Part shown: positions 1,511 to 60,496 of the stretch, piece by piece
Layout: each line of letters opens with the position of its first letter
Numbering within the stretch: the first letter of the stretch is position 1
Source: a phage
DNA length: 64,000 bases
Assembly (NCBI GenBank): GCA_025812035.1
Contig: GCA_025812035.1_4719.1
Direction: 5' to 3' (one strand)
Made by a program: the position numbers and the translations under genes
The notes under the pieces: generated by a model
Databases searched by the model: none
What the model saw: only the letters and a program-made list of their open reading frames with translations
Told to the model about the DNA's origin: nothing

Positions 1511-1840
1511 ATGAAGCTGAACATCGAAATGGGTATTGCGTACGATACCATGTTCGGTTTGTATGACCGCGTTAACGACTGGACACCGTTGAAATGGGTT
1601 GCCCAGCATCCTGCTGAAGACCCATGGGACAGATTAGGGATTAAACCCTTAATCGAGGATTACGTACGATTCGGTATTAAAGAGTTCATGTCGCTCGACG
1701 CATTTTTAAAAGCACCGTATCCTTATGCGCAAACGGTACTCAAGATCGCACAAGACGAGCTGCGGAAACGCAGTGCTGTATTGGACGACGATGAGGACAA
1801 GTTACGACGAGAAGAAGAACGTTTACGAAACGGAAGATAA
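1511..1840 (+). CDS. hypothetical protein
   Basis: 109-codon ORF, co-directional with flanking plus-strand genes; acidic C-terminus; no motif recognised. Confidence 0.4.
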   Translation: MKLNIEMGIAYDTMFGLYDRVNDWTPLKWVAQHPAEDPWDRLGIKPLIEDYVRFGIKEFMSLDAFLKAPYPYAQTVLKIAQDELRKRSAVLDDDEDKLRREEERLRNGR

Positions 1841-1841
1841 A

Positions 1842-2351
1842 ATGGCGAGATTTACCAGTTTGATTGGGTTGGACATTTGGGAGACACCTGCTGACGTTAG
1901 GGTTATTCCCGTTAACACTGTCGGTGTGATGGGACGTGGTCTTGCGAAGCAGGCAGCCGAGCGTGTGCCCGGTCTTCTTGAAGCGTACCGTAAGCACTGC
2001 TCTGATGGATTTAAGGTGGGCGAAGTCGTATCGTATCAGCACGGCGAGAACGATCAGCTCACCTACGTACTGTTTCCATCGAAATCGGATTGGCGTGAAA
2101 AAACACGACGCGAGTATATCGTTAGCGGCTTACTGGCGTTAAAGGCGTGGTTATTGGAGCTTCAGTTCGAAAGAGATGGCTTCTCATACCGGAGTCCGGC
2201 TGAACCGTTGATCGTAGCGATTCCTCCTGTTGGTTCTGGTTGCGGTAATATCGGTTACGGGCAATCCGAAACAATCCAGCCTCAATGGGTACGCGCACAA
2301 ATCAAACAGTATCTTGCCACCGTACCGAACGTTCATTTCTACTTGTTCTAA
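1842..2351 (+). CDS. macro-domain-like protein (putative ADP-ribose binding/hydrolase)
   Basis: ATG at 1842 preceded by GGAAG and placed 1 nt after the upstream stop; motif VIPVNTVGVMGRGLAKQ resembles the N-x-x-G-x-M-G-x-G-x-A core of OARD1/TARG1-type macro domains; ORF-track start 1725 rejected because it overlaps the upstream gene. Confidence 0.55.
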   Translation: MARFTSLIGLDIWETPADVRVIPVNTVGVMGRGLAKQAAERVPGLLEAYRKHCSDGFKVGEVVSYQHGENDQLTYVLFPSKSDWREKTRREYIVSGLLALKAWLLELQFERDGFSYRSPAEPLIVAIPPVGSGCGNIGYGQSETIQPQWVRAQIKQYLATVPNVHFYLF

Positions 2352-2367
2352 CGCAAAGGTAACATAA

Positions 2368-2399
2368 CCCTCCTCCAACCCGTAAGGGAAGGAGGAGGG
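2368..2399. terminator. GC-rich stem-loop (9-bp CCCTCCTCC/GGAGGAGGG stem, inner CCC-GTAA-GGG) between convergent genes; copy 1 of a 3-copy repeat
   Basis: perfect inverted repeat read directly; sits between the plus-strand gene ending at 2351 and the minus-strand gene ending at 2417; only a weak T-rich tail, so terminator role is inferred. Confidence 0.45.
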
Positions 2400-2416
2400 A
2401 ATATGCTGTTATGTTA

Positions 2417-2791
2417 TTAATGTTCGTTCCAAATGGCATCTTCCGGTGGGACGATAGGATCTTTCTTCGGCATTGACGGCACTTCATGACGATGCTTACG
2501 GAATTGCCTATCAATAACCTCACGAAGCCGGTACGCGTCAACCCACGTTGATTTATTGAATAACTCCAACGTCACGGTTAATCGCGTTCTTGACATTGAA
2601 TAGCTTTTCTTTGCAATCAAATCGGGATAATTCAGTTGAGCGAACCAGGCACGTATTTGCGCTTCGGTAAAAGCGATGCTGTAATAACTGAGTTTACCAT
2701 CATTAAAATCGTGCGCGTGGGTGTAACGTCCCGCATAACGCCAGACAAGATGCACATTCAGATCGATCCATGGTGGGGTGGTATCAGCCAT
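2417..2791 (-). CDS. hypothetical protein
   Basis: 124-codon ORF, first gene of the long minus-strand block; no motif recognised. Confidence 0.45.
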   Translation of the reverse strand: MADTTPPWIDLNVHLVWRYAGRYTHAHDFNDGKLSYYSIAFTEAQIRAWFAQLNYPDLIAKKSYSMSRTRLTVTLELFNKSTWVDAYRLREVIDRQFRKHRHEVPSMPKKDPIVPPEDAIWNEH

Positions 2792-6026: not shown

Positions 6027-6668
6027 TTAGATGTACTGCTTACCGCCCACGAAGGAAGTCAGCCAGTTCCCTGAAACAAGCTGCGATACCCAACCGGGTA
6101 CCGCTCTACCATTCTGGCTCATGATGTTACCACACCAACCAGGGAATCCGGGACGGATATAATAGAAAGTTAAATTGTAGAGATGGCAATTCCACACCGC
6201 AACGTTATGTTTACCAGAAACCGCTTTAAAGACAAACGCAACGGGTAAAGGCGACGATAGCAATTCGGTCACAGGGACGGCTGACCAATTCGCATTCGCG
6301 TTCCACGGTTGCCAGGTATGGCTACGCGAGTCGCAAAATACGTTACCGTTGTTACCGCGCCCACCCGCATTCCACCACAGCGACGGACTCATGTTCTTAA
6401 GTGAGGTAAATTGCTGCGGTGGAATATTAGGAATAATAACAGGGTTGGTACCTTGCCCATGTTTCTTTTCTTTTGCGTTCACATACCCGCTTATCGATTC
6501 GAGGTATTTGACACCAGGATAATTGTTCTGGACTTGTGTCGCAATATCACGAACATCAAACGTCCAGCAGATCATGGTGTTGTAGTAAGCATCGGTGTTG
6601 TCGTACCATGCGTTACCATCTTGTAAACGTGCGCCACTATTCGGTGTTTTATCTGTGTTTATAGCCAT
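6027..6668 (-). CDS. hypothetical protein, paralog sharing C-terminal domain with 6780-7496
   Basis: 213 codons; C-terminal RPGFPGWCGNIMSQNGRAVPGWVSQLVSGNWLTSFVGGKQY is near-identical to the C-terminus of the next gene. Confidence 0.5.
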   Translation of the reverse strand: MAINTDKTPNSGARLQDGNAWYDNTDAYYNTMICWTFDVRDIATQVQNNYPGVKYLESISGYVNAKEKKHGQGTNPVIIPNIPPQQFTSLKNMSPSLWWNAGGRGNNGNVFCDSRSHTWQPWNANANWSAVPVTELLSSPLPVAFVFKAVSGKHNVAVWNCHLYNLTFYYIRPGFPGWCGNIMSQNGRAVPGWVSQLVSGNWLTSFVGGKQYI

Positions 6669-6769: not shown

Positions 6770-6794
6770 CTAACTTCAATTAAATTGAAGTTAG
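6770..6794. repeat. perfect 12-bp inverted repeat with 1-nt spacer (CTAACTTCAATT-A-AATTGAAGTTAG) centred on the stop codon of gene 6780-7496
   Basis: read directly from sequence; AT-rich palindrome straddling a gene end. Confidence 0.4.
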
Positions 6795-7496
6795 ATATTG
6801 TTTACCTCCAACAAACGACGTTAACCAATTACCTGAAACAAGTTGCGATGCCCAGCCAGGCACTGCCCTACCGTTCTGGCTCATCACGTTACCTGCCCAT
6901 CCCGGAAAACCCGGCCGGAAAATATATACTTGAATATGTGTTAAAGCGTTATCATTACCACCGCCAACAGCAACGTTACGACTCCCAGATGACGGGAAAT
7001 ATTCTTTTAAGAACAGAGGATCGGTTGCTAATAAAGATGCGGGCCAAGGGTTCGCGGATGCATCAACATCGAATTCGGTCCATCGCCATTTACGTCCCGT
7101 GTCGAACCATGTCGATGTACCGCCTCCACGCACTGCAAGATTGCGTGCGTCGCGGGCATTGTAAATTGATTCGATGTTACGCCACCCACCTTTTGCGGCG
7201 TTTGCCGCATAGCAAATCGCATTACCACCATTCTTCTTTTCGTAAACAGTTCGTTTGATATGAACACGATCGATGAACGCTTCACCGTATTTGTTGACGA
7301 GCGTTTGTGCGATATCACGAAGATCGTGCATGTGAAAAGCGATGTCTTCGTTATGGAACCATGTTGTCGGGTTCCAGACGGTACCGTTTGGTTCGGCACA
7401 CATCGATCGGATATTGTTGCGTTGATTAACCGCGATAAAACCCATTGTATACCTCGTTCCTATTCTCAAAAAGGAAATTTCATACGATGACGCCAT
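6780..7496 (-). CDS. hypothetical protein, paralog sharing C-terminal domain with 6027-6668
   Basis: start revised to ATG at 7496 (MASSYEISF...), 5 nt downstream of the GGAGGAG arm of the hairpin at 7501-7530; the ORF-track start at 7532 lies inside that hairpin. Confidence 0.5.
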   Translation of the reverse strand: MASSYEISFLRIGTRYTMGFIAVNQRNNIRSMCAEPNGTVWNPTTWFHNEDIAFHMHDLRDIAQTLVNKYGEAFIDRVHIKRTVYEKKNGGNAICYAANAAKGGWRNIESIYNARDARNLAVRGGGTSTWFDTGRKWRWTEFDVDASANPWPASLLATDPLFLKEYFPSSGSRNVAVGGGNDNALTHIQVYIFRPGFPGWAGNVMSQNGRAVPGWASQLVSGNWLTSFVGGKQYLTSI

Positions 7497-7500
7497 AGCA

Positions 7501-7530
7501 GCTCCTCCTTCCCTTACGGGTTGGAGGAGC
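7501..7530 (-). promoter_or_regulatory. GC-rich stem-loop, repeat copy 2; its 3' arm GGAGGAG lies 5 nt upstream of the ATG at 7496
   Basis: 28-nt core identical to the 2368 and 41224 copies; in the transcript the hairpin 3' arm overlaps the Shine-Dalgarno position. Confidence 0.45.
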
Positions 7531-7538
7531 ATACTTAA

Positions 7539-8045
7539 TTACTCGCTGATAACCTCAACGGAATTGGGATCAGCGATCATCGCACGGTCAGTAGAACAAT
7601 TGAAGAAGACCATGCCGACACCATCGCCGTTCGAGTTCAGGGTTGAACTTACGTAAGACAGGGTTGGTTTATTCATGCGGTAGAAGCGTTCGCTGGTAGC
7701 GGTATTGAACCCCAGATCAACGTAGTCTTTCACCGTGGTATACAGCTGCGTGGATTCGAAGACGGTTACCGGAGAGTCAACGGTAAATTGACTACCTTCA
7801 TCCACAACCAGAACCTTATCGTTCCAGATTTCAGTGGTTGAAAACTTCGGTTTCCAATGTTCGAATTCCTGGGTTGCACCCCAGCAAGAATACACAGCAA
7901 GATTGCTGTTCTTCTCAACAGGTTTCAAACCCACCAGTTGTGTCAGGTCTTTATCCAGGTTCGGTAAGCCTTCCAGCGTAGCACACCCGCCCAGAGAAAG
8001 CACCATCAACATACCAAGAACGATCGCGCAAAGTTTCTTCATCAT
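7539..8045 (-). CDS. putative lipoprotein
   Basis: N-terminal MMKKLCAIVLGMLMVLSLGGC gives a signal peptide plus lipobox-like LGGC. Confidence 0.5.
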   Translation of the reverse strand: MMKKLCAIVLGMLMVLSLGGCATLEGLPNLDKDLTQLVGLKPVEKNSNLAVYSCWGATQEFEHWKPKFSTTEIWNDKVLVVDEGSQFTVDSPVTVFESTQLYTTVKDYVDLGFNTATSERFYRMNKPTLSYVSSTLNSNGDGVGMVFFNCSTDRAMIADPNSVEVISE

Positions 8046-12555: not shown

Positions 12556-12669
12556 AAGCGCACCCTCCTCCAACAATCAATTAAAATGCAAAACACCTCG
12601 AAACCAGAGTGCGATTCGAAGCAAGCGTAAACGGCCTGAACGACCGCATAAAATTCCGCGCATATTACC

Positions 12670-12699
12670 CCCTCTACCCCGACAAAGCGAGGTAGAGGG
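12670..12699 (-). promoter_or_regulatory. intergenic stem-loop (CCCTCTACC/GGTAGAGGG, 9 bp), followed in the transcript by AATATGCGCG
   Basis: perfect inverted repeat between gene 12712-14466 and gene 12028-12555. Confidence 0.4.
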
Positions 12700-12711
12700 A
12701 GAATAATACGA

Positions 12712-14466
12712 TTATGCTGCTACGTATCCAGGCCAACGTTCTCTTGGCCAGTTTGTTGCACCCTGTCCGACGGTGTCTTTACCAGAAATGACGTTACTTA
12801 CATCCCATCCACTCAGATCCTGATTGAATGCGGTGTTCTCGCGCATCATGAGATCGATCTTACGTAGTGAGTGGGTATTCCAACCAGATATGTCTTGGTT
12901 GAATGCTTTATTGTAGGCAAACATGTTAGACACGTTCTGTAATTTTGACGTGTTCCAACCACTGATGTCGCTATTGAACGACGTGCTTGAGAACATGCTG
13001 CTCGCATCAACAAGATTGTCGGTTTTCCAATTAACCACTTTATCGCCGTCAAATGCATTGCTGCTGCTGAACATAAAACTCATATTGCTAGCTTTGGACA
13101 CATCCCATTTATCTAACCCTTTACCGACGAACTCATTACATGCCGAGAACATCCAGCTCATATCGGTAACCCGACTCACGTTCCATTTGCTGAAGTCAAG
13201 GTTAAGTTTCTGACACCCTAAGAAGGTCTTATACATGTTGGTGATGCGACTAACATCCCACTCTTGGATGTTAGGGTCGTTAAGCGTCGTTAAGTAGTTG
13301 AACAATGTCGCTAACGACGTCCATTTCTCTGGAATCCGGTTTGGTACCGTACGAAGCGATGCAAGGTTGTTGGTTGACGGAGAGCAGAACATACCGTTAT
13401 CCCAATTTACGATTTCCGTAATTTTGGACCCTTTGATCGTCTGAGTGGTATTACCATCTTTCACTATACCCGTAGCAACGATGGTATATTCACCGGTGCC
13501 TGCATAATCGTGGGCGTAGGCACCGTTACTTGAGGTCTCCGTTACTTTATTCCCATCACCCCAATCGATATTAACTTTATCCCACCCACTTAGGTTGAAC
13601 TGTACTTTGCCTCCGGTAGCTTTTAGGATGTATTTACCTCCATTGTCGGTAAAATAGCAGACAACCATTGAACCGTACAGATTACCTATCCGCCAATCAT
13701 CCTTTTCTGTCACTGCGATTTGCGCTAAGCCACGCTGTACGAAGAGTACTGTGCGGTTCTCGTCAGTCTGTAATGTGGCTAATGCTTGGGCCTTATCGTC
13801 CTCGCTAATTTCATTAGCGCTCACTAAAACGCTTAACATTCTTTCGAAGTATTCGATGGGTAATTGACGTCCTACAGACTTATCAACCGACGGTTCAGCA
13901 AGATCGCCCAACGCTGCAGTGGTGGCCAGCATCAACGAACCCTTGGTCATATCTGTTTCTTGTAGGTAGTGCAGTCCTGTAATCTGGTACGCTTGAATAA
14001 TCGTAATCAGGTTCAGCGTATCGTTAACGACCTGTACTTGTAAATGTCCAGACCATACGTAGCTGCTTTCGGCAATTGGTAGTTCGACCGACTGGATACC
14101 TGATGTTTCAAAGGTGATCTTCTTGTTAAGATCGGTTTCCAGGAAATCAACAGCGAGGTCAAAATTTATACCGTACTTCTCAGCGATAGAATCCACGATG
14201 TTTCTGAAAGCAACGTCATTATTTACGATGAAACGTAATGGGATTCCTGCAAACGCTCTAGCAATGTCTCGACGAACATACGTGAGCGACTGCTCGAAGA
14301 AATAGGGGCTACCATCTCGCGGTTTAATGGTCACCTGACATACTTCGGGATATTCAGCTGGGATTAACGACACGAATTCAACATCGGATTCTTTCAATGA
14401 AAGCATATTCTTCCGGTTTACTAATGCCAGAAGATCGGCTTTCCAACCAGGATAAACTGTAGACAT
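12712..14466 (-). CDS. tail fibre-like protein with PKD-like segment and DUF285-type repeats
   Basis: start revised to ATG at 14466 (GGAGTG upstream; MSTVYPGWKADLLALVN aligns with paralog N-termini); IDWGDGNKVT...YAHDYAGTGEYTI is PKD-like; C-terminal repeats of type FNQDISGWNTS..M..MF are DUF285/BspA-like. Confidence 0.6.
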   Translation of the reverse strand: MSTVYPGWKADLLALVNRKNMLSLKESDVEFVSLIPAEYPEVCQVTIKPRDGSPYFFEQSLTYVRRDIARAFAGIPLRFIVNNDVAFRNIVDSIAEKYGINFDLAVDFLETDLNKKITFETSGIQSVELPIAESSYVWSGHLQVQVVNDTLNLITIIQAYQITGLHYLQETDMTKGSLMLATTAALGDLAEPSVDKSVGRQLPIEYFERMLSVLVSANEISEDDKAQALATLQTDENRTVLFVQRGLAQIAVTEKDDWRIGNLYGSMVVCYFTDNGGKYILKATGGKVQFNLSGWDKVNIDWGDGNKVTETSSNGAYAHDYAGTGEYTIVATGIVKDGNTTQTIKGSKITEIVNWDNGMFCSPSTNNLASLRTVPNRIPEKWTSLATLFNYLTTLNDPNIQEWDVSRITNMYKTFLGCQKLNLDFSKWNVSRVTDMSWMFSACNEFVGKGLDKWDVSKASNMSFMFSSSNAFDGDKVVNWKTDNLVDASSMFSSTSFNSDISGWNTSKLQNVSNMFAYNKAFNQDISGWNTHSLRKIDLMMRENTAFNQDLSGWDVSNVISGKDTVGQGATNWPRERWPGYVAA

Positions 14467-14618
14467 AAGCACTCCAATCATGGGGCGGTAACCGCACCCA
14501 ACGGTTAAATTGTCGATTATGGTCGTTGCTGATAAGACGACCATAACCAACGATGTTTAATATGTAGTATATTGATATCATGACGTTATGGGGATCTAAG
14601 TCATACCATGGAGACGGC

Positions 14619-14672
14619 GAAAAAAAAAAGAAAATAGGAAAACGGTGTTCATCCTTTTAGGGATGAACACCG
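14619..14672 (-). terminator. rho-independent terminator (12-bp stem, long U tract)
   Basis: inverted repeat CGGTGTTCATCC/GGATGAACACCG at 14643-14672, followed in minus sense by a T-rich run including ten consecutive T (plus-strand A10 at 14620-14629). Confidence 0.7.
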
Positions 14673-14691
14673 CGTACCATTTGTAAGACGA

Positions 14692-16524: not shown

Positions 16525-16551
16525 ACCCTTCCCGCGTAAGGCAGGAAGGGT
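16525..16551 (-). promoter_or_regulatory. intergenic stem-loop (ACCCTTCC/GGAAGGGT) followed in the transcript by TTATGCTGTTAAAC
   Basis: inverted repeat read directly; loop contains CGTAAGG, as in the 2368 family. Confidence 0.4.
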
Positions 16552-23716: not shown

Positions 23717-23744
23717 CGGCATAAGCCCTCCCATAACGGGAGGG
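23717..23744 (-). promoter_or_regulatory. stem-loop (CCCTCCC-loop-GGGAGGG) followed by CTTATGCCG box
   Basis: hairpin 23726-23744 plus box 23717-23725 in minus sense, between the stop of gene 23750-24178 and the start of the methyltransferase gene. Confidence 0.45.
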
Positions 23745-23749
23745 TACGA

Positions 23750-27132: not shown

Positions 27133-29820
<2,688 letters not shown>

Positions 29821-34713: not shown

Positions 34714-35082
34714 TTATTTATCGGGGTCTGGAAAATAGTAAAATCGCCAATGCAAAATAGAAATCGCATTTCTTATTTGATTCGCACGAACACAGCGTCC
34801 GAGAAAGGATTTGTAGCAAGAATCGCAATCCATAAACAACTCGTGGCTCGATTTCATCAAAACCACGATGTCTCTTATATACGAATTGCAGTACTCGATA
34901 AACGGATCTGTATCGTACGTATATTTCCTCGCACTACCTATCCCCAACTCTCTATTTAACTCACGACAATTTATCATGAGCTTCACATAACGGATAAGCC
35001 GAACGAAGTCACGTAAATTACGATTAAACCAATATCGATACCAAAATGACTGTATGCCCCAAACAGTTCTATTTAACTTCAT
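34714..35082 (-). CDS. hypothetical protein
   Basis: 122-codon ORF. Confidence 0.4.
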   Translation of the reverse strand: MKLNRTVWGIQSFWYRYWFNRNLRDFVRLIRYVKLMINCRELNRELGIGSARKYTYDTDPFIEYCNSYIRDIVVLMKSSHELFMDCDSCYKSFLGRCVRANQIRNAISILHWRFYYFPDPDK

Positions 35083-38666: not shown

Positions 38667-39551
38667 TCAATAACGGCCGTAGCGTTCCTCGAGCCGTTCT
38701 GGTTTTCTCAGAAGGCTATCTTTAAGCGGTACGACGTCGATATCAACACTCTCTGAGTAATAGCCGTTAGAACTACCATACCAACGGATGACAACACAGC
38801 CCTTCGCAGTGCGGATATGGTAGAATGTCCATTGTGTACGTTCGCTATAATAGCCGTAGTCATCGGTTCTTTCCTCGGTTCTTTCTTCAGCACTGAGTAT
38901 CTTTTCACCGATGATATCGTTAATATCGCCCTCAATGTCTTCAAGATACACCTCTTCGCAGCAATCCTGCTGATGACAGAATTCGACAACGTTTCCATCG
39001 CCGCGATAGAAAAGAAGGGCGATACCGTTTCGTAATTGCTCGCTCGTTACATCAGACACGCAATGCAAACTTTTATCGTCGGTTATCACCAAGACATTGT
39101 TGATTACATGCCCGGCAAGCGCTCCAATCTTATTTACCGTAACAATCGGACGAACCGGTTCAGATTGAACGATAGGAATACGGACACAACCAATTAAGGC
39201 CATCCGTCCTTTCGTTGGTCTAACCGCAAGATAAGGTGATTTTCTTGGGTGGTTATGTAGTCGTATTTCTACTTCGTTGAATTTAATCCCGTATGAACAC
39301 AGAAAATAATTGAATAGTTTACGGAATTCCTCGGTTGCTTCTTGCAACGTGATGTTATTTACTGTGAGTTTATGTCCCCTAAACACCCGGGTTAAATCGA
39401 TAACATCCAGTGTTTTGAAATATATTTCCGTAAGGGGATGACCCGTGTATTCCAGGCAAGTAATTGTTCTTTGAACCACGATTTTAGGCGGTGCGCCTTT
39501 AAAACGTTTCAGGTATTTAACGCGATAACGGGTATGATCTGACGTTAACAT
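38667..39551 (-). CDS. hypothetical protein
   Basis: start revised to ATG at 39551 (AGGAGAGGAG 7 nt upstream); the ORF-track N-terminus at 39552-39650 coincides with a hairpin+TTTATGCCG element and is more likely 5' UTR. Confidence 0.5.
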   Translation of the reverse strand: MLTSDHTRYRVKYLKRFKGAPPKIVVQRTITCLEYTGHPLTEIYFKTLDVIDLTRVFRGHKLTVNNITLQEATEEFRKLFNYFLCSYGIKFNEVEIRLHNHPRKSPYLAVRPTKGRMALIGCVRIPIVQSEPVRPIVTVNKIGALAGHVINNVLVITDDKSLHCVSDVTSEQLRNGIALLFYRGDGNVVEFCHQQDCCEEVYLEDIEGDINDIIGEKILSAEERTEERTDDYGYYSERTQWTFYHIRTAKGCVVIRWYGSSNGYYSESVDIDVVPLKDSLLRKPERLEERYGRY

Positions 39552-39616
39552 TTTAATCTCCTCTCCTGGCTTCAGAGAATTCTCAAAATCCGTTAGTTTT
39601 GATAGACGGGATAAGA

Positions 39617-39646
39617 CGGCATAAAAGCCTCCCGTATTGGGAGGCT
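39617..39646 (-). promoter_or_regulatory. stem-loop (AGCCTCCC/GGGAGGCT, 8 bp) followed by TTTATGCCG box
   Basis: hairpin 39626-39646 and box 39617-39625 in minus sense, about 65 nt upstream of the revised start at 39551. Confidence 0.45.
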
Positions 39647-39658
39647 CCATTAATCGGC

Positions 39659-40901: not shown

Positions 40902-41201
40902 TTACTGAAACAAGACATTAAATTCGACGAGATACCCATCGGATCTATCACCACGATATCTGTTGCAGAAAACACCGAATTTCATCAAGAACTCACATAA
41001 CTCTTCGGCTTTGTATAGCGGAATACGATTTTCGTCGAGCAGAGGGCACTTATGGCTAACCCGCTCCGACGAATCAACGCAACACAAATAAAGAAGGAAT
41101 CGAACAATAGCTCGGTTCTTAGTGAAGCTCTCGAATTCACCTGCGGTTCTGAACTCATCGAGGAGCTTTGTCGTTTTCTTCAATCGTTCACGATCAAGCA
41201 T
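40902..41201 (-). CDS. hypothetical protein
   Basis: 99-codon ORF. Confidence 0.4.
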   Translation of the reverse strand: MLDRERLKKTTKLLDEFRTAGEFESFTKNRAIVRFLLYLCCVDSSERVSHKCPLLDENRIPLYKAEELCEFLMKFGVFCNRYRGDRSDGYLVEFNVLFQ

Positions 41202-41223
41202 GTTAACCTCAATACGAACATAA

Positions 41224-41255
41224 CCCTCCTCCTTCCCTTACGGGTTGGAGGAGGG
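41224..41255. repeat. GC-rich stem-loop, repeat copy 3 (32/32 identical to the reverse complement of copy 1)
   Basis: CCCTCCTCCTTCCCTTACGGGTTGGAGGAGGG on the plus strand; intergenic between two minus-strand genes. Confidence 0.5.
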
Positions 41256-41264
41256 GATATGCTG

Positions 41265-41579
41265 TTATTCTGTTTTCGGTGTTGAACCGTTCTTCTTGAA
41301 GTCGGATTCGTATTTCACGTTAGAATCGAGAACCTCACGAACGGTTTTATCCGTACAACCACGAGCGATGTATGCATTAAGATCGTCACGTAATTTACGC
41401 ATCGTTGTTTTATCCGCATCAGAAACATCTGACTTGGTAAGACGGAATGCGATTGCGTCGCGAATCTTATTCAGCATTGCTGGGTTATTACGCTGTTCTG
41501 TAAATACCGCTTTGATGAATTTATCGCTATCTTTCGAAGCGATGGCGGCATCAAGAATCTCAATATGCTTTTCAGACAT
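41265..41579 (-). CDS. hypothetical protein
   Basis: 104-codon ORF, Lys/Asp-rich. Confidence 0.4.
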   Translation of the reverse strand: MSEKHIEILDAAIASKDSDKFIKAVFTEQRNNPAMLNKIRDAIAFRLTKSDVSDADKTTMRKLRDDLNAYIARGCTDKTVREVLDSNVKYESDFKKNGSTPKTE

Positions 41580-47588: not shown

Positions 47589-47615
47589 CGGCATAAACCC
47601 TCCCCGAAGGGAGGG
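47589..47615 (-). promoter_or_regulatory. stem-loop (CCCUCCC-UUCG-GGGAGGG) followed directly by TTTATGCCG box
   Basis: hairpin 47598-47615 with a UUCG tetraloop in minus sense, box 47589-47597; between the phosphatase gene and the next gene. Confidence 0.45.
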
Positions 47616-47625
47616 TGATTAACGA

Positions 47626-49372: not shown

Positions 49373-49419
49373 CGTACGTACCTCTTTGAATCGGTAAATA
49401 TATTAATAAATATTGTTTA

Positions 49420-49456
49420 CTCACGTAAGTAATATAGCCGTGAAAGGATTTGCATT
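49420..49456. promoter_or_regulatory. 37-nt conserved intergenic element, copy B, in the divergent region
   Basis: CTCACGTAAGTAATATAGCCGTGAAAGGATTTGCATT; exact 17-mer shared with 19845-19861. Confidence 0.4.
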
Positions 49457-49526
49457 GGTCCGTTTCGATGACCATCGTATTTTATGGATTGTCGAATGAC
49501 GTCATTTTTAAAGGGACATCCCCGGC

Positions 49527-49560
49527 CTCCTCCCCGGGAAAGGTGCGGGGAGGAGTTTTT
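49527..49560 (+). terminator. plus-strand stem-loop (10-bp CTCCTCCCCG/CGGGGAGGAG) followed by TTTTT, ~30 nt upstream of the helicase start
   Basis: read directly; location upstream of a gene makes attenuator or 5'-UTR structure an alternative. Confidence 0.4.
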
Positions 49561-49589
49561 ACATACTTTCTATTAATTCGAGCGCGATT

Positions 49590-51671: not shown

Positions 51672-51772
51672 TTAAGAAGCTCTGCCTGATGTCAGGCAGA
51701 GCTTTATGCTGCGTTTACTGCAAAATCGTATGACGTATATACGTCGTAATGATTAAAAATAGGGCAGAACAC

Positions 51773-53227
51773 ATGAAACTCAAACAAAGCTGGAAAAACG
51801 AACTCCTTGCATTAGTAAACAGCAAAAACAGTTTACAACTGACATTAGACGACGTAAAATTTGAACTAACCGAACCGGTAAGCGAAGTGCCTGGAACGGT
51901 CGTTGTTACGATCAAACCGAACGATAATAGTCGCTACTTTAACGAGCAGTCTCTGACCTACGTCCGTCGAGACATTGCTAAAAACTTCACCGGGATTCCG
52001 TTACGGGTTATCGTTAAAAAAGATACCGCCGTAAGGGATATCATCAGTACGATTGCTAAACGTTACGGACTGGTATTTGATACCACTGTCGACTTCCTCG
52101 AATCAGAACTGAATAAGCAAATTACTTTCGCAGACACCGGTATTAAAGACGTTACGGTTCCGGTTGCCAATACGTCTTATGTTTGGGCCGGTAATCTTCA
52201 GTTCAATATCGCTAACGATACGTTAAGCTTGATTACTATCATCAAGAAAACCGATCTTACGAATCTGGTTTATCTGGATGGTGTTGAAGCTGACACATCG
52301 GGGTCGTTACTGTTAGCAACCGCAGCACTTGTTAACGAACACGTAAATGAACCGATGGTTGAAAACGAAGATATCGTTAATGAATTCATTAACGTTCTTA
52401 ATGCTCTAGCCAAATATGGTGACATAACCGGCGATGAATTAGATGCCGCCTTACAAGCGTACGATGAAGCAGAAAACAGGAATAAAACCACGGTAATAAC
52501 TCTTGGTGATATCGAGTGCGTTGCAACCGAAAAAGACGATTGGGAAATTGGACATTTACGCGGTCGGATGGTTCTCGCGCTCAAATCCGATAAACAACCG
52601 GAGCTCGATAACACGTTCAGGTTGTTTACGAATGGTGGTGATGTATCGCTAACGTTAAACACAATGAAAGATATAAGTATCGATTGGGGTGATGGGAATA
52701 AAGTAACGTTGGATGCCGAAGAAAGATACGCGCACCACACATATGCCGACAATAACCAATACCAAATCGAAATTGTGTCTCGTACGGACCCAGATGTGCT
52801 GCGACCAAATTATATTTCTGGGAGTGAGATAACCGAAGTAATTCACTGGGCTACTACTTCAACAATAGCTCTGAATTTTGTTGGATGCGATAATTTAGCG
52901 ACTGTTCCAGATGAGATCCCAACTTCGTGGACAACGTTGGACAGCATGTTTGAAAGTTGTACGAATTTGAATGATCCGTCTATCTCTAACTGGAATACAA
53001 GTAACATCACATCAATGAATGGTATGTTCGGCGGATGCACTAAATTTAACCAACCTTTAGCTGCCTGGGATGTCAGCTCGGTAACTGACATTGGTGGTAT
53101 GTTTGTCGGGTGTAGCAGTTTTAACCAAGATTTAAGTGGATGGCGATTACCGTCTGGAGTAAACCACCGCGATTACGATAGTGGTGCTTTCTCGTGGCAG
53201 ACGGAACATAAACCGACGTTCAAGTAA
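51773..53227 (+). CDS. tail fibre-like protein (shared N-domain, PKD-like segment, DUF285-type repeats)
   Basis: start revised to ATG at 51773 (MKLKQSWKNELLALVN aligns with paralog N-termini); IDWGDGNKVT...YAHHTY; C-terminal ...FNQPLAAWDVSSVTDIGGMF...FNQDLSGW. Confidence 0.55.
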   Translation: MKLKQSWKNELLALVNSKNSLQLTLDDVKFELTEPVSEVPGTVVVTIKPNDNSRYFNEQSLTYVRRDIAKNFTGIPLRVIVKKDTAVRDIISTIAKRYGLVFDTTVDFLESELNKQITFADTGIKDVTVPVANTSYVWAGNLQFNIANDTLSLITIIKKTDLTNLVYLDGVEADTSGSLLLATAALVNEHVNEPMVENEDIVNEFINVLNALAKYGDITGDELDAALQAYDEAENRNKTTVITLGDIECVATEKDDWEIGHLRGRMVLALKSDKQPELDNTFRLFTNGGDVSLTLNTMKDISIDWGDGNKVTLDAEERYAHHTYADNNQYQIEIVSRTDPDVLRPNYISGSEITEVIHWATTSTIALNFVGCDNLATVPDEIPTSWTTLDSMFESCTNLNDPSISNWNTSNITSMNGMFGGCTKFNQPLAAWDVSSVTDIGGMFVGCSSFNQDLSGWRLPSGVNHRDYDSGAFSWQTEHKPTFK

Positions 53228-53247
53228 AAAAAAAATAGTTAGCATAT

Positions 53248-53280
53248 CTTCCTCCCCGCCCATAACGGGCGGGGAGGAAG
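53248..53280. terminator. bidirectional terminator candidate (14-bp stem CTTCCTCCCCGCCC/GGGCGGGGAGGAAG) between convergent genes
   Basis: perfect inverted repeat; preceded by A10 on the plus strand (U tract for the minus strand) and followed by GTTTATGCGC. Confidence 0.55.
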
Positions 53281-53297
53281 GTTTATGCGCTTATGAC

Positions 53298-53636
53298 TTA
53301 GAACCAGAGTTCTTTCATGAAGTAGGCTTCCATATCGTAGATAAGCCACTCATCAGGGATTTCTAAAGGATCGTCTTCGGTTAAGGTCAGCATGTGCAGG
53401 GCGAACGCACGCTTAATATCTTCCAGCAGCTTATCGTCACCGTAATCTTCGGGTAGTTTATTATCAACCAACTGGGTTTGTTTATAAACATCACGGAACG
53501 CTTCAGGACTATGTTTGTCCATTGGGAATTGTTCGGCAGCCTGGACCATCGATAACGTCCAGCTCACAACGTTGTAACGTTCGTCGTTAATTCCACTGAA
53601 CTTATCATCGATTAAACAAATTTGTTGTACGTTCAT
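53298..53636 (-). CDS. hypothetical protein
   Basis: 112-codon ORF, acidic. Confidence 0.4.
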   Translation of the reverse strand: MNVQQICLIDDKFSGINDERYNVVSWTLSMVQAAEQFPMDKHSPEAFRDVYKQTQLVDNKLPEDYGDDKLLEDIKRAFALHMLTLTEDDPLEIPDEWLIYDMEAYFMKELWF

Positions 53637-54598
53637 TCAATTTCTCCATTCTTATCTTGGTCGCAGTCGCATTCTTCGTTGTTCTTCTTACTTAAACGTA
53701 AGACACCGAGTGCAGCATGCTTGAGTTCTTGCAAGGCGCTTTTCAGCTGACCTTCTTCGTCGAAATCAAAATACTTCTCGTTGTAGCTTAATGCTGGAAT
53801 CATATTTACGAGAGGTTCGATGGCAGGCATCAGCATTTCAATGACGACCTTAGGGTCAACAAAACGTTCAAACCCTTCAGGAAGTTTACTTGCCACAACC
53901 TTATCGTTCTTGATGTAGAATTTGTTCTTGAACAAATCGTCAAGAATAGCGTTTTCTTCATCCGTGCGTTCCGCATAAGGACGATCGATCATCTGAACGA
54001 AAACACCATTCAATGTTTCAGGTACAGATGGATTTTCACGAATCGAAACCCCACCAGGAATCTCAATATCGATCTTCGCCCACTCAACTACCTGATGGTC
54101 TCGCGTGTAGATAACATCTACTTCCCACGCCAGACCGTCAGGACTTTCTACGGTGTAACGTGTTTTCGCTTGACCTTCCGGAGCCATACGCTCAATGGCA
54201 TCAAACATCTCGACCGGAATTTCTACTTCGCTTTCCGTCGCGTCACCTGGACCGCGATACACCTTCGTGGTCATGATGTATTTCGGTTCTTCGTTACCGA
54301 TCTGTATCGCACGTGCGCGCACCTGACCTTTCACACCACCAACGGCTGTGTTATCGAACAACCATTGATGTTGCACCATATGTTCAATTTTCGATGCTAC
54401 TTGACGAAGACGTTCAACGCCATCTTCGGCCAGTTTGCCAAAGAAGACCAGCTCACGTTCCTGCTGTGTCTCACCACTTAACATCATTAAATTGGCGATT
54501 TGTTTCACGCCTCTTACTTTTGACATACATGCTCCGGTTATAAGGGTCTGTTTCCAGACCCCTCGTTGATTTTTGATTTCACCAAACGCTATCGTCAC
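53633..54598 (-). CDS. hypothetical protein
   Basis: 321 codons; 4-nt overlaps with the genes on both sides suggest an operon with the helicase. Confidence 0.45.
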   Translation of the reverse strand: MTIAFGEIKNQRGVWKQTLITGACMSKVRGVKQIANLMMLSGETQQERELVFFGKLAEDGVERLRQVASKIEHMVQHQWLFDNTAVGGVKGQVRARAIQIGNEEPKYIMTTKVYRGPGDATESEVEIPVEMFDAIERMAPEGQAKTRYTVESPDGLAWEVDVIYTRDHQVVEWAKIDIEIPGGVSIRENPSVPETLNGVFVQMIDRPYAERTDEENAILDDLFKNKFYIKNDKVVASKLPEGFERFVDPKVVIEMLMPAIEPLVNMIPALSYNEKYFDFDEEGQLKSALQELKHAALGVLRLSKKNNEECDCDQDKNGEIE

Positions 54599-56856
54599 AA
54601 TTCGAAATCTTCATCGATAACGCGCTGTGTGAGCACCTTGTCACTGAAGAACTCTACTTTGCGCTGATGGTATTTACGGTGCGCTTCGATAGAGGTACAC
54701 ACCAGATACCAGAACGTTGGCGTCATTCCTTCAAACTTCCCTTTCAGCTGACGCAGTCGCCCCAACACCTGAATGTTACCGGTTCGTGATCCCATCGCTA
54801 ACGTCATGAACGCCATCACCAAATCAGGGAGGTCGATACCTGTCCCCGCCGATTTCACGGTTGTAACGCTGATATCGTTATCCAACAAGACCATGAAATC
54901 TTCTTCAGCGGTATAAGGACCGATCTCTAACTCGGGAATACGTTCACTGAGATAGTGCGACAATGACTTACACATATCAACGGTTGCACAATACACCAGC
55001 ATCTTCATACCTTCCTGATACTGGTTCATGAAACCTTTGATGATAACCGTATAGATAAAGTTGAAATACGCGAGTTTGAGTTGCTTATTCTTCATGATAG
55101 ACTGTTCGAATATCGTGTGTGAATAAGAACCCCCAAAGCCTTTGTATCTGATTTTATCTGTACTACGTAGTCGATACGTCACGGCATTTACCGCAATGTA
55201 TTTCTTGTATTCGCCTTTTGCGAAACGCGCTTCTTTCGGATACATCAAATACAACATCCGCTCGATGAACGGATCATCGGATACCGCTGTTGCCGACAGA
55301 TAAATGATTTCCGGAATATTGGCGTAACACTTGACTTTAAACAAGAAATGCAAGGCTTCGTGACATTCGTCGTGAATCAGTAGACCTATACCCGTCTTTT
55401 CCCAAAACTCAGCGGGATGGAAGGCGTATGGCGCAACGCAGTTATTCTTCTCGTAGTCCGCAATATAACGTTGGAACATGTTCAAGGAGAATAACGCGAT
55501 TTTGAAATCCAGCTCGCCTTGTTCCACCAACGTCTGGAATTCCAGCATGCTGTAACGAGGAATGTCGGGATGCGGTGGATCCTCCTTAGCGTTCCCGCGT
55601 ATCTCAATAACGTCCCCTGGTTCCATTCCGAAGAAGTTCAGCAATGAGCTTCGCCAACCTGGCATATACCGTGGAGAGAGTATGATGCCTGTGCGTACAC
55701 CACGTCGAAACACGATTTCCTGTGACATCGCGGTGTTGTGTGTGACGATGTGGTCTTTAATGACATAAAGGCTTTCGTCATTATCCACCGTGATGCAACG
55801 TGCTTTCGCTTTAACTGTCGGTACGATGCTATCAATCGCTAAACCAGGAAGCCTGTTAACAGGGAGATCGTCTGGAATCTCAACGTCGTCAGGAATAAGC
55901 TTAAGTAAATCGGAATGATAAATTAATGTCTCCATCGTGTAACTATCGATGGGGCATTTATACGCAATTCCTCCTAACTGATACGCCAACTCCCAAACCT
56001 TGGTTGTTATCTGTGAATCAACGGTTCTGACCGCAAGGTGAGCCTGTCCGTTTTCGATTCGCAACTCACAACGACCTTTGACCACCACCTTAAATTCTTC
56101 GAGACCTACGAGTTCTTTCGGTTCGTAAAGTCGGATTCTTATCGGACGGGGTCTGGCAGGTTTATCGTAAAGACATTCCATGATTTCGTCTGTGCTGAGA
56201 ACCTTATCGGGGTCAGTACAACGCCAGAGATGATCGCCACAAGCTTCAACCATTCTACCGTCCTCAAAGAAGATAGCATAAAGCTGAATATTGTCATGAT
56301 CGAAGATCGCTGTAACGTTGGTCGGTAGCCCATTCGCACCAATAACCCGATCCCCTACTTGAAGCTCACCAATCGGCTTCCAACCACCTGGAACCTTTAC
56401 AGGCGTATGAAGCGCTAGCGCTTTGCCACTGCCTGTTTGAGCGGTGTTTAGGCTCATTCTGAAGGGGGTATCCTTACCCCCGTTCATGTACTCCAGCCAT
56501 TCTTGCTGATCTTCTCGCCACGGAAACTTCCATTTCTTTACGAACTCCACTTCCTTACCGGGTACCGGATCATGGTAAACGATCTCCAGCCACTCTTTTC
56601 GGATTCCTCGGGAAAAGATAAAATCCAAAAACGATTTCAACTGTTCGCGGAGTAAGTATACCTCGCTATAATCGCTTCTCGCTGCGGCATACGTGTTTAT
56701 GGTATCGGTAACCATTCTCCGTGTACGAGGGTCACGTCGTTTCCTCAGATGCAAACAACGGTCTCGAAGGTAATGGCCGATAAGATGGGCAAATCGAAGT
56801 CCGTATCCGCTCAGCTTCATGCCATGCGAGAAGACGTCGATACGAGCTAACTTCAT
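54595..56856 (-). CDS. DExH-box helicase interrupted by an intein
   Basis: Walker A AQTGSGK...T split by an insertion; motif II LIHDECHE; SAT; motif V/VI VKSAGTGIDLPD and QVLGRLRQ. Confidence 0.7.
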   Translation of the reverse strand: MKLARIDVFSHGMKLSGYGLRFAHLIGHYLRDRCLHLRKRRDPRTRRMVTDTINTYAAARSDYSEVYLLREQLKSFLDFIFSRGIRKEWLEIVYHDPVPGKEVEFVKKWKFPWREDQQEWLEYMNGGKDTPFRMSLNTAQTGSGKALALHTPVKVPGGWKPIGELQVGDRVIGANGLPTNVTAIFDHDNIQLYAIFFEDGRMVEACGDHLWRCTDPDKVLSTDEIMECLYDKPARPRPIRIRLYEPKELVGLEEFKVVVKGRCELRIENGQAHLAVRTVDSQITTKVWELAYQLGGIAYKCPIDSYTMETLIYHSDLLKLIPDDVEIPDDLPVNRLPGLAIDSIVPTVKAKARCITVDNDESLYVIKDHIVTHNTAMSQEIVFRRGVRTGIILSPRYMPGWRSSLLNFFGMEPGDVIEIRGNAKEDPPHPDIPRYSMLEFQTLVEQGELDFKIALFSLNMFQRYIADYEKNNCVAPYAFHPAEFWEKTGIGLLIHDECHEALHFLFKVKCYANIPEIIYLSATAVSDDPFIERMLYLMYPKEARFAKGEYKKYIAVNAVTYRLRSTDKIRYKGFGGSYSHTIFEQSIMKNKQLKLAYFNFIYTVIIKGFMNQYQEGMKMLVYCATVDMCKSLSHYLSERIPELEIGPYTAEEDFMVLLDNDISVTTVKSAGTGIDLPDLVMAFMTLAMGSRTGNIQVLGRLRQLKGKFEGMTPTFWYLVCTSIEAHRKYHQRKVEFFSDKVLTQRVIDEDFEL
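55735..56421 (-). other. intein (~229 aa) inserted in the helicase P-loop
   Basis: N-terminal block ALALHTPVKVPGGWKPIGELQVGDRVIG resembles intein block A but begins with Ala; C-terminal block ...SLYVIKDHIVTHN followed by Thr; removing it restores GSGKT. Confidence 0.55.
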
Positions 56857-59580: not shown

Positions 59581-59633
59581 GAAAAATAAACAACAACATA
59601 AAACCCTCCCACCTCCACGCGGGAGAGGGAGGG
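59581..59633 (-). terminator. stem-loop with bulge (CCCUCCC...GGGAGGG) followed by UUUUAUGUUGUUGUUUAUUUUUC
   Basis: hairpin 59604-59633 plus U-rich run in minus sense downstream of gene 59652-60014. Confidence 0.5.
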
Positions 59634-60388: not shown

Positions 60389-60467
60389 ACCAGGGATCCT
60401 CTTTTAAGTGGTCACATTCTAGTGTTAAGCAGTTAAAATAAACCGTCCCTTTAATCAGCATAAACAT

Positions 60468-60496
60468 CCTCCTCCCACCACATGGGCAGGAGGAGG
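60468..60496 (-). promoter_or_regulatory. stem-loop (CCTCCTCC/GGAGGAGG) followed in the transcript by GAUGUUUAUGCUG
   Basis: perfect 8-bp inverted repeat with 13-nt loop, intergenic. Confidence 0.4.

Follow-up and report, generated by a model that had tools for sequence, protein, structure and literature searches.

A repeated two-tier hairpin in a Goslar-like jumbo phage is a likely, largely bidirectional phiKZ-type intrinsic terminator

Results

Three copies of one hairpin lie just past gene ends

The window analyzed here, a stretch of phage DNA 64,000 nt in length, contains a 28-nt core, CTCCTCCAACCCGTAAGGGAAGGAGGAG, as exact matches at 2370-2397 (+), 7502-7529 (-) and 41226-41253 (-). The window holds no fourth match even when up to 3 mismatches are allowed, and 100 shuffles of it gave 0 matches, in line with a chance expectation of 0. 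The exact repeat that a first-pass annotation had reported at 2368-2399, 7501-7530 and 41224-41255 is therefore as described, the core being present three times and the full 32 nt twice (2368-2399 is 32/32 identical to the reverse complement of 41224-41255). The copies and their surroundings are as follows.

2368..2399, both strands: copy 1, two-tier hairpin CCCTCCTCC-AA-CCC-GTAA-GGG-AA-GGAGGAGGG; proposed bidirectional terminator
1725..2351 (+) and 2417..2791 (-): convergent neighbors of copy 1, the first macro-domain/phosphatase-like; 65-nt gap, with the hairpin 16 and 17 nt from the two stops
2400..2412, +: tail of copy 1 for + transcripts, AATATGCTGTTAT; 8/9 positions of the phiKZ tail TTATKYYGT
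2355..2367, -: tail of copy 1 for - transcripts, TTATGTTACCTTT on the - strand (...AACATAA on the +)
7501..7530, -: copy 2, GCTCCTCC-AA-CCC-GTAA-GGG-AA-GGAGGAGC, 8 nt past the stop of 7539..8045; putative co-directional terminator
7489..7500, -: tail of copy 2, CTGCTATGGCGT; its TATG supplies the "ATG at 7496"
7443..7455, -: probable true start of the gene downstream of copy 2; GAGG at 7455-7452, 6-nt spacer, ATG at 7445-7443, at least 45 nt beyond the hairpin
41224..41255, -: copy 3, 32-mer identical to copy 1 on the - strand; begins 9 nt past the stop of 41265..41579
40902..41201, -: co-directional gene downstream of copy 3, which ends 22 nt ahead of its start; has its own GAGG
41211..41223, -: tail of copy 3 on the transcription-downstream side, TTATGTTCGTATT
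41256..41268, +: tail on the opposite side of copy 3, GATATGCTGTTAT; common to copy 1 on the same genome strand, with no + gene supported here

The coding status of 40902..41201 is supported by its differences from the related phage Goslar, 4/5 of which fall at third codon positions. From this sequence comparison, Goslar_00145, a + strand call overlapping the equivalent of this gene, looks like a mis-call.

Each copy folds into an outer stem of 8-9 bp, a 2x2 A.A internal loop, an inner CCC/GGG stem and a tetraloop. Folding energies of the hairpins with their flanks range from -24 to -32 kcal/mol (z -3.9 to -6.4 against shuffles), confirming the strong structure anticipated from the letters, and neither the MFE nor the centroid folds of the three hairpins contain a competing structure. 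The first reading also placed the repeat in both orientations. This holds for the genome strand and not relative to transcription: at all three copies in the window the transcript of the directly upstream gene reads AA..GUAA..AA. Site 1, between convergent genes, is read from both sides. The repeat unit is also larger than first delimited. On one and the same genome strand, sites 1 and 3 also have the flanks (A)ACATAA ... RATATGCTGTTAT in common, with the 14-nt interior inverted between them, and the unit with its flanks measures about 52 nt, with identical units present at many sites.

A scan of the whole window against Rfam gave 0 families at gathering score. Scans for consensus sigma-70 promoters and U-tract terminators gave totals no higher than shuffle expectation; the three copies were missed because they have no T-run. 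PHROG and Pfam scans of the neighboring proteins suggested no RNA-binding partner and no mobile-element enzyme. The paper on the RNA-binding protein ChmC reports no binding motif and no hairpin preference.

The hairpin belongs to a family with annotated members in Goslar

The window is 91-92% identical at the nucleotide level to the E. coli jumbo phage vB_EcoM_Goslar, a nucleus-forming, phiKZ-like member of the Chimalliviridae in whose syntenic region RNAP beta-like subunit genes are annotated. The Goslar record (GenBank MK327938) labels the identical 32-mer at 27746-27777 a "putative transcriptional terminator", and gives the orthologue of copy 1, at 93445-93476, the same label; the Goslar paper cites the terminator predictor ARNold.

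We counted the family across the whole Goslar genome and the window. The two-tier form, an 8-10 nt Y-arm, AA-CCC-N4-5-GGG-AA and an R-arm, was found with the pattern AACCC(N4-5)GGGAA. The invariance of the inner module is partly circular because the copies were retrieved by that very pattern, and we do not use it as evidence of sequence-specific recognition. There are 15 copies in Goslar and 3 in the window, all 18 intergenic. Nine of the 15 Goslar copies are convergent, eight of them among the roughly 19-23 convergent junctions and the ninth bridging the two termini of the record, which is circularly permuted. The 186 "--" junctions account for only 6 copies and the divergent ones for none, so that the long two-tier version is concentrated at convergent gene ends. 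Most Goslar copies have tails on both sides, and 13/15 share the same genome-strand orientation of the interior. Most of the remaining real convergent junctions carry other long hairpins with C/G arms (-26 to -34 kcal/mol).

Beyond Goslar, a search of viral contigs (IMG/VR) recovered the exact 28-mer from Goslar-like contigs only, at 6 or more sites, and 185,579 bacterial and archaeal genomes yielded no copies. A shorter 18-nt inner pattern gave three isolated IMG/VR matches outside Goslar-like contigs, none of them the same element: two lie in apparently non-hairpin sequence and one in a different hairpin with a U-rich tail.

An energy scan of the intergenic gaps of the window detected about a dozen further hairpins of this class, including the following.

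12663..12705, -: related C-rich/G-rich hairpin after a - gene; TATG tail; G-U pairs
16525..16551, -: related putative terminator; tail GGGTTTATGCTGT, a perfect fit to the phiKZ tail pattern
23725..23745, -: related simple putative terminator, GGGAGGG-CTTATGCCG
39613..39656, -: related simple putative terminator; full phiKZ consensus with 3 substitutions
47589..47624, -: related simple putative terminator, ACCCTCCC-TTCG-GGGAGGGT-TTATGCCG; phiKZ consensus with 4 substitutions
53246..53282, both strands: related putative terminator between convergent genes 51749..53227 (+) and 53298..53636 (-); -34 kcal/mol; TATG tail on each side
59604..59633, -: related putative terminator; tail GGTTTTATGTTGT, a perfect fit to the phiKZ tail pattern
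60467..60494, -: related putative terminator, CCTCCTCC...GGAGGAGG then ATGTTTATGCTG

The hairpin at 53246..53282 occupies the other real convergent junction of the window. That at 12663..12705 is stronger as - strand RNA (-26.3 versus -19.9), owing to its G-U pairs.

Structure, placement and tails point to transcription termination

We consider it likely, at a probability of roughly 0.8, that all three copies act as intrinsic, factor-independent terminators like those on which the phiKZ-like, nucleus-forming jumbo phages (Chimalliviridae) rely. Directly in favor are the fold and its covariation, the position of the copies, the directionality of the tails and agreement with a published motif, and from these we infer that transcripts of the window phage actually end at the copies.

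The outer stem is maintained by covariation. Pairing holds in 98.5% of cells over 17 two-tier copies, and in 5 of the 12 pairs both sides have changed (22 cells); shuffles never attained such values, and every slid register collapses. The pairs of the two-tier outer stem are exclusively Watson-Crick, with no G-U intermediates, as expected if the transcripts of both strands must fold. Among the hairpins at "--" junctions, the RNA of the transcribed strand is the more stable (22 versus 8, Wilcoxon p=0.016); those at convergent junctions show no such asymmetry.

Placement follows the upstream gene. The window copies lie 8-17 nt past stop codons, and in the hairpin family the median distance from the upstream stop to the hairpin start is 13 nt (IQR 6-17). 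The distance from the tail to the next ATG is broad, with a median of 60 and values up to 800.

The sequence immediately after the stem tracks the direction of transcription. We tallied 53 intergenic hairpins of the class (34 "--", 16 convergent, 3 divergent). TATG directly follows the stem on the transcription-downstream side in 26/34 "--" hairpins and on the other side in 7/34, against a background of 3-4%; it is found on both sides in 10/16 convergent hairpins and as a tail in 0/3 divergent ones. At the sites studied here the stem is followed by AATATGCTGT (site 1, +), TTATGTTAC (site 1, -) and TTATGTTCGT (site 3, -). Compared with the phiKZ tail pattern, the site 1 + tail ATATGCTGT fits at 8/9 positions, the site 2 tail CTATGGCGT at 7/9, and the Goslar site-1 tail CTTATGCTGT perfectly. 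The C-rich 5' arm CCCTCCTCC and the G-rich 3' arm GGAGGAGGG likewise have the make-up of a phiKZ-type terminator; the CCUCC earlier taken for a mimic of the anti-Shine-Dalgarno is, with its partner GGAGG, the arm composition of that consensus.

Under the termination reading, a C-rich/G-rich hairpin of high stability would form in the transcript while the phage RNA polymerase is exiting the gene, the conserved UUAUG(C/U)UGU tail would come after it, and the RNA would be released there; the hairpin may additionally shield the 3' end. The same DNA can terminate transcripts arriving from either side because the outer stem is a perfect Watson-Crick palindrome with a tail on each flank.

The tail is only moderately U-rich, which counts against the termination reading.

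At co-directional site 3 a well-conserved tail is also present on the non-transcribed side, which pure termination leaves unexplained.

Discussion

Our analysis indicates that the element is an ordinary one, of a kind already annotated: it is probably the Goslar-lineage version, two-tier, largely bidirectional and repeated in near-identical copies, of the phiKZ-type intrinsic terminator. The first-pass annotation had seen a dispersed structured element with possible translational control. Dispersal and structure are borne out by at least 15 Goslar copies and by the covariation of their stems; translational control is not, as we discuss below.

The closest precedents are transcriptome maps of related phages. 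ONT-cappable-seq of phiKZ defined 133 termination regions, 61 of which share the motif 5'-BCCYCCCCHWWDGGGRRGGBYTTATKYYGT-3', in which a TTAT region comes after a C-rich/G-rich hairpin, and six phiKZ terminators are bidirectional (Putzeys et al. 2024, PMC10914365). Motif A of 201phi2-1 (n=59) is similar to the phiKZ motif; in the same phage some hairpins are elongated A+B forms, 15 terminators are bidirectional, and eight terminated strongly in a reporter trap (PMC11512511). These phages belong to the same virus family as the window phage and have phage-encoded multisubunit RNA polymerases. Their terminators resemble the hairpins described here in arm composition, in the TTATG(C/T)(C/T)GT tail, in the CATAA mirror at convergent junctions, in their position just past stops and in their many copies per genome. 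Our own scan of phiKZ DNA found, among others, aacataat-GCCCTCCCGCAATGGGAGGG-CTTATGCTGT, the same CATAA-hairpin-CTTATGCTGT layout as in the window, and the phiKZ convergent pair at 34918/34937 likewise has CATAA ... TTATG on both flanks.

There are differences as well. The phiKZ consensus describes a 7-bp stem with a 4-nt loop, whereas the three copies are two-tier (9 bp, AA/AA, 3 bp and a tetraloop), and at up to 4 substitutions the full 30-nt consensus is not matched by any of them, although it is matched by the window hairpins at 39645 and 47617. We regard the two-tier stem as a variant and not as grounds for exclusion because 201phi2-1 also has elongated A+B hairpins. Several window and Goslar copies are, in addition, identical in sequence, and the terminators of the Goslar lineage are predicted from sequence, in contrast to those mapped in phiKZ and 201phi2-1. 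The present data extend the phiKZ / 201phi2-1 terminator motif to a genus that infects E. coli.

Bidirectional intrinsic terminators are also found between convergent bacterial genes, where one symmetric hairpin serves both strands and each strand has its own tail. The phage unit departs from these in having a UUAUG-type tail and not a U-tract/A-tract pair, and in occurring at some co-directional junctions as well.

Recurrent alleles and interior inversions

The unusual points of this family are its recurrent alleles and the inversion of its interior, and they leave the functional reading unchanged. Several outer-arm alleles recur within Goslar (CCCTCCTCC five times, CCCTCTCCC four times, CCTTCCTCC and CATCCTCCC twice each). 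At site 1 the window and two metagenomic relatives (UViGs) carry one allele and Goslar another of the recurrent ones; this apparent double compensatory change is therefore more likely to reflect conversion or replacement by another family member. In addition, the 14-nt interior (AA-CCC-GTAA-GGG-AA) is inverted between colinear, near-identical flanks at 5/11 comparable orthologous sites, namely site 3 (window versus Goslar), Goslar 48116 (versus UViG_3300045988) and three further sites. Both orientations of the interior fold about equally well.

One-step inversion of a loop by template switching during replication has been documented in RNA hairpins (Monttinen & Loytynoja 2022, PMC8794818). As in those cases, a segment between complementary arms is replaced by its reverse complement and the stem stays intact. 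The 14-nt piece differs in including the inner 3-bp stem and the internal loop, and flips are far commoner here than has been described in rRNA, affecting 5/11 sites between genomes that are about 90% identical. Template switching is the simplest explanation of the interior flips. As to how the copies spread, we infer a process in which whole hairpin alleles would be copied or converted between intergenic sites, giving identical copies, and in which the interior would flip by template switching or by recombination between the 8-10 bp inverted arms. The frequent flips and recurrent alleles make this family a clean natural example of hairpin template-switch or conversion dynamics. A programmed inversion switch, which the 13:2 strand bias of the Goslar copies might suggest, is unsupported: UViG_3300045988 shows 5:3 at the shared sites, and the two orientations fold alike.

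It is tempting to go further and to view the terminators as a concertedly evolving, invertible repeat family in which alleles are copied, interiors flip at about the rate of point substitution, the TATG may couple termination to re-initiation, and the units may seed an exchange of cassettes like that of PeSLs. We put this forward as a possible but doubtful extension.

We are more doubtful still of a related proposal, that the unit is primarily a mobile or recombinogenic cassette (PeSL-like or REP/MITE-like) that spreads and mediates the exchange of gene cassettes, with termination as a by-product. The identical units of about 52 nt at many sites, the recurrent outer-arm alleles and the allele difference at site 1 would all fit, and breaks in window/Goslar colinearity abut terminator hairpins at 7442, 12723, 14596, 39562 and 53195. 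Such co-location is nevertheless expected because viable indels must end in intergenic DNA anyway, and the breaks at 27456 and 35699 have no hairpin nearby. The flanks examined contain no target-site duplications, no transposase is evident, and the 28-mer is confined to Goslar-like viral contigs, with 0 copies in the bacterial and archaeal genomes searched. The proposal is moreover compatible with a terminator function and so is not an alternative to it.

Precedent for such cassettes comes from the PeSLs of T4-like phages (PMC2839356, PMC4122927), near-identical intergenic stem-loop cassettes distributed through a large phage genome, some of which adjoin differences in gene content between close relatives, as some units do here. 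PeSLs, however, are promoter-terminator composites in another phage family with another polymerase; the unit described here is a putative terminator, and its link to indels seems no better than expected for intergenic DNA. A second likeness is to the repeats of bacterial chromosomes. REP/BIME elements of enterobacteria are dispersed, near-identical imperfect palindromes at gene 3' ends, occur in either orientation and can stabilize the upstream mRNA; REPs are host-chromosome elements tied to a RAYT transposase. The phage repeat differs in its absence from the 185,579 bacterial and archaeal genomes and in carrying a phage terminator tail.

Processing and promoter activity

An unlikely alternative to termination is that the hairpins act solely in mRNA processing or stability, as an exonuclease block or nuclease site that sets 3' ends after read-through. 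REP-type palindromes in E. coli do block 3'-5' exonucleases and define 3' ends, the hairpins here are very stable, and their tail is not a classic U-tract; ONT 3' ends by themselves cannot tell termination from processing. An exonuclease block, on the other hand, needs no conserved directional tail, and 12 bp with an internal loop is short for an RNase III substrate. In uninfected cells, moreover, 201phi2-1 terminators with this class of motif halted transcription when placed in a trap with two reporters (PMC11512511).

The mapped phiKZ 3' ends themselves could partly reflect processing or exonuclease blocks and not termination.

We think it equally unlikely that the unit is a late promoter, in which the TATG of the tail would be the T(-3)ATG(+1) core of a promoter for the non-virion RNA polymerase and the unit would initiate transcription, whether or not it also terminates it. 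TATG is indeed the exact core of phiKZ late promoters (PMC7598289), and the tail TATG lies 49 nt (site 2) and 17 nt (site 3) ahead of the next start codon. Against this, where TATG flanks both sides of the stem at convergent junctions it would be directed antisense into the ends of genes, the hairpins at divergent junctions lack TATG tails altogether (0/3), the unit is anchored to the upstream stop and not to the downstream start, and the published logos show no conserved upstream hairpin (PMC7598289).

A putative terminator tail that resembles a ribosome binding site

It is very unlikely that the 3' arm GGAGGAG of copy 2 is the Shine-Dalgarno sequence of a gene starting at 7496, locked by the hairpin as a translational operator. 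The arrangement that prompted the idea is real: GGAGGAG ends 5 nt ahead of the ATG at 7496, the frame is open into the 6780 gene in the window, and the GenBank starts of Goslar_00047 and Goslar_00183 are placed likewise. GGAGGAG is not, however, the only plausible Shine-Dalgarno for this gene: a better start lies at 7445, where GAGG is found 6 nt ahead of the ATG. As for the ATG at 7496, it belongs to the TATG in the conserved tail of the terminator, which also undercuts the earlier view that the element is "not just a terminator".

Comparisons between genomes and between paralogues both favor the downstream start. In alignment, the window, Goslar and UViG_3300011560 agree without a difference from the upstream gene to ...GAACGAGGTAnAnAATGG, a span that takes in the hairpin and a leader of 50 nt; they diverge completely right after GAACGAGGTAnAnAATGG, whose last ATG is window 7445. 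Goslar and UViG_3300011560 do not have the gene found in the window, and their frame equivalent to that from 7496 meets a TAG after 15 codons. The 6780 gene is a 36%-identical paralogue of its neighbor 6027..6668, and the alignment of the two leaves 25 unmatched N-terminal amino acids when read from 7496 and 8 from 7445. The ATG at 7445 is thus the probable start of the gene downstream of copy 2. The G-rich arm and TATG also occur on both sides at convergent junctions, with no gene following, and in each of window 39650, Goslar_00183 and Goslar_00047 an in-frame ATG follows downstream, preceded by a GAGG or AGGAG of its own. In the first of these, the ORF downstream of 39613..39656, the first ATG (39650) precedes the hairpin, and the real start would be 39551, with the Shine-Dalgarno AGGAGAGGAG. 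Given 7445 and these comparable cases, the resemblance to a Shine-Dalgarno sequence plus start is therefore built into the terminator motif.

This resemblance is a pitfall for annotation. A G-rich arm followed by TATG mimics a ribosome binding site with a start codon and can yield over-extended or spurious ORF starts in chimalliviruses, as at 7532/7496 and 39650 in the window and probably in Goslar_00183, Goslar_00047 and Goslar_00145.

Scarcely credible, finally, is a signal acting purely as DNA, whether a cruciform or a protein-binding site for replication, packaging or a nuclease, with no role in RNA: the outer stems are perfect, Watson-Crick-only palindromes and 13/15 Goslar copies share one genome-strand orientation, but placement is strictly just past stop codons, the orientation of the tail tracks the direction of transcription, related co-directional hairpins contain G-U pairs and fold more stably as RNA of the transcribed strand, and bidirectional use accounts equally well for the Watson-Crick-only pairing. 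That two-tier version, long and strictly Watson-Crick, could also be put to use in E. coli as a compact part for insulation in both directions.

Gene models at putative terminator hairpins

The putative terminator hairpins, phiKZ-type stems with a C-rich and a G-rich arm lying just 3' of stop codons, carry a TATG-containing tail that, together with the G-rich arm before it, mimics a Shine-Dalgarno sequence and start codon, and the gene models concerned are these (L012 and L015 are pieces of the genome of Goslar, the related E. coli jumbo phage):

window 40902-41285 (Goslar MK327938 134413-134640), + strand: Goslar_00145 region, as annotated in GenBank
window 40902..41201, - strand: 99-aa ORF overlapping Goslar_00145
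window 38667-39650: window-only gene with a DUF7448 domain
L015:16885-16924: Goslar_00183, GenBank start at the ATG of a putative terminator tail
L012:49659-49772: Goslar_00047, GenBank start likewise at the ATG of a putative terminator tail

The + strand reading frame of Goslar_00145 would run across a putative terminator hairpin. The overlapping - strand ORF differs between the window and Goslar at 5 nt; four of these hit the third position of a codon in that ORF, and just one residue of its product changes. Judged from sequence, Goslar_00145 is probably an annotation error. The first ATG of the DUF7448 gene (39650) overlaps the stop of the preceding gene, and its frame crosses a putative terminator hairpin; the true start is likely to be 39551, with the Shine-Dalgarno sequence AGGAGAGGAG. 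Goslar_00183 and Goslar_00047 probably have over-extended N-termini as annotated, because in-frame ATGs with a GAGG Shine-Dalgarno sequence lie farther downstream in both. Goslar_00047 may encode only 24 aa, or may not be a gene.

Orientation and similar hairpins elsewhere

Two-tier copies (outer arm-AA-CCC-NNNN-GGG-AA-outer arm) present AA..GNNA..AA on the + strand of the record in 13 of the 15 Goslar cases (L012-L016), opposite to the strand that carries most Goslar genes (~80% on the - strand). At sites shared with Goslar, the orientations in the metagenomic relative UViG_3300045988 are 5:3. Selection, a mutational bias or history may lie behind the Goslar skew.

An apparently unrelated 43.5-kb viral contig, IMGVR_UViG_3300020577_003345, carries CCCCC-AA-CCC-GTAA-GGG-AA-GGGGG followed by CTTTTCTTTATT (L024:1950-2000). 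Its inner module is that of the two-tier copies, but its tail is of the classic U-rich terminator type. Within the window, the divergent intergenic region 49373-49589 holds a strong hairpin, CTCCTCCCCGGGAAAGGTGCGGGGAGGAG, then TTTTTAC (49527-49555). The Goslar counterpart (142891-142915), 5' of a helicase gene, is annotated as a terminator. Terminators of the 5'-UTR or attenuator type are described for phiKZ, and this hairpin may be another.

Gene-content differences from Goslar

Two adjacent genes lie immediately downstream of tail-fibre and tail-fibre-assembly genes:

window 6027-6668: Goslar_00087
window 6780-7445: additional 221-aa gene, missing from Goslar and from the metagenomic relative UViG_3300011560

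Their products are paralogues (36% identity), with strong similarity over the C-terminal ~45 residues and no Pfam or PHROG matches; their position suggests that both may have a role in host range.

At window 12723-14596, a cassette swap places a 610-aa ORF where Goslar (103564-108078) has a ~1200-aa 'tail protein' and one more gene, and putative terminator hairpins adjoin both ends of the replaced segment (12663-12705 and 14637-14678). Finally, ORF 54595..56856 encodes 753 aa, against 524 aa for its SF2 helicase-like counterpart Goslar_00164. The ~700 extra nt (55737-56441), in frame and matching neither Pfam families nor Rfam introns, may represent a domain insertion or something resembling an intein.
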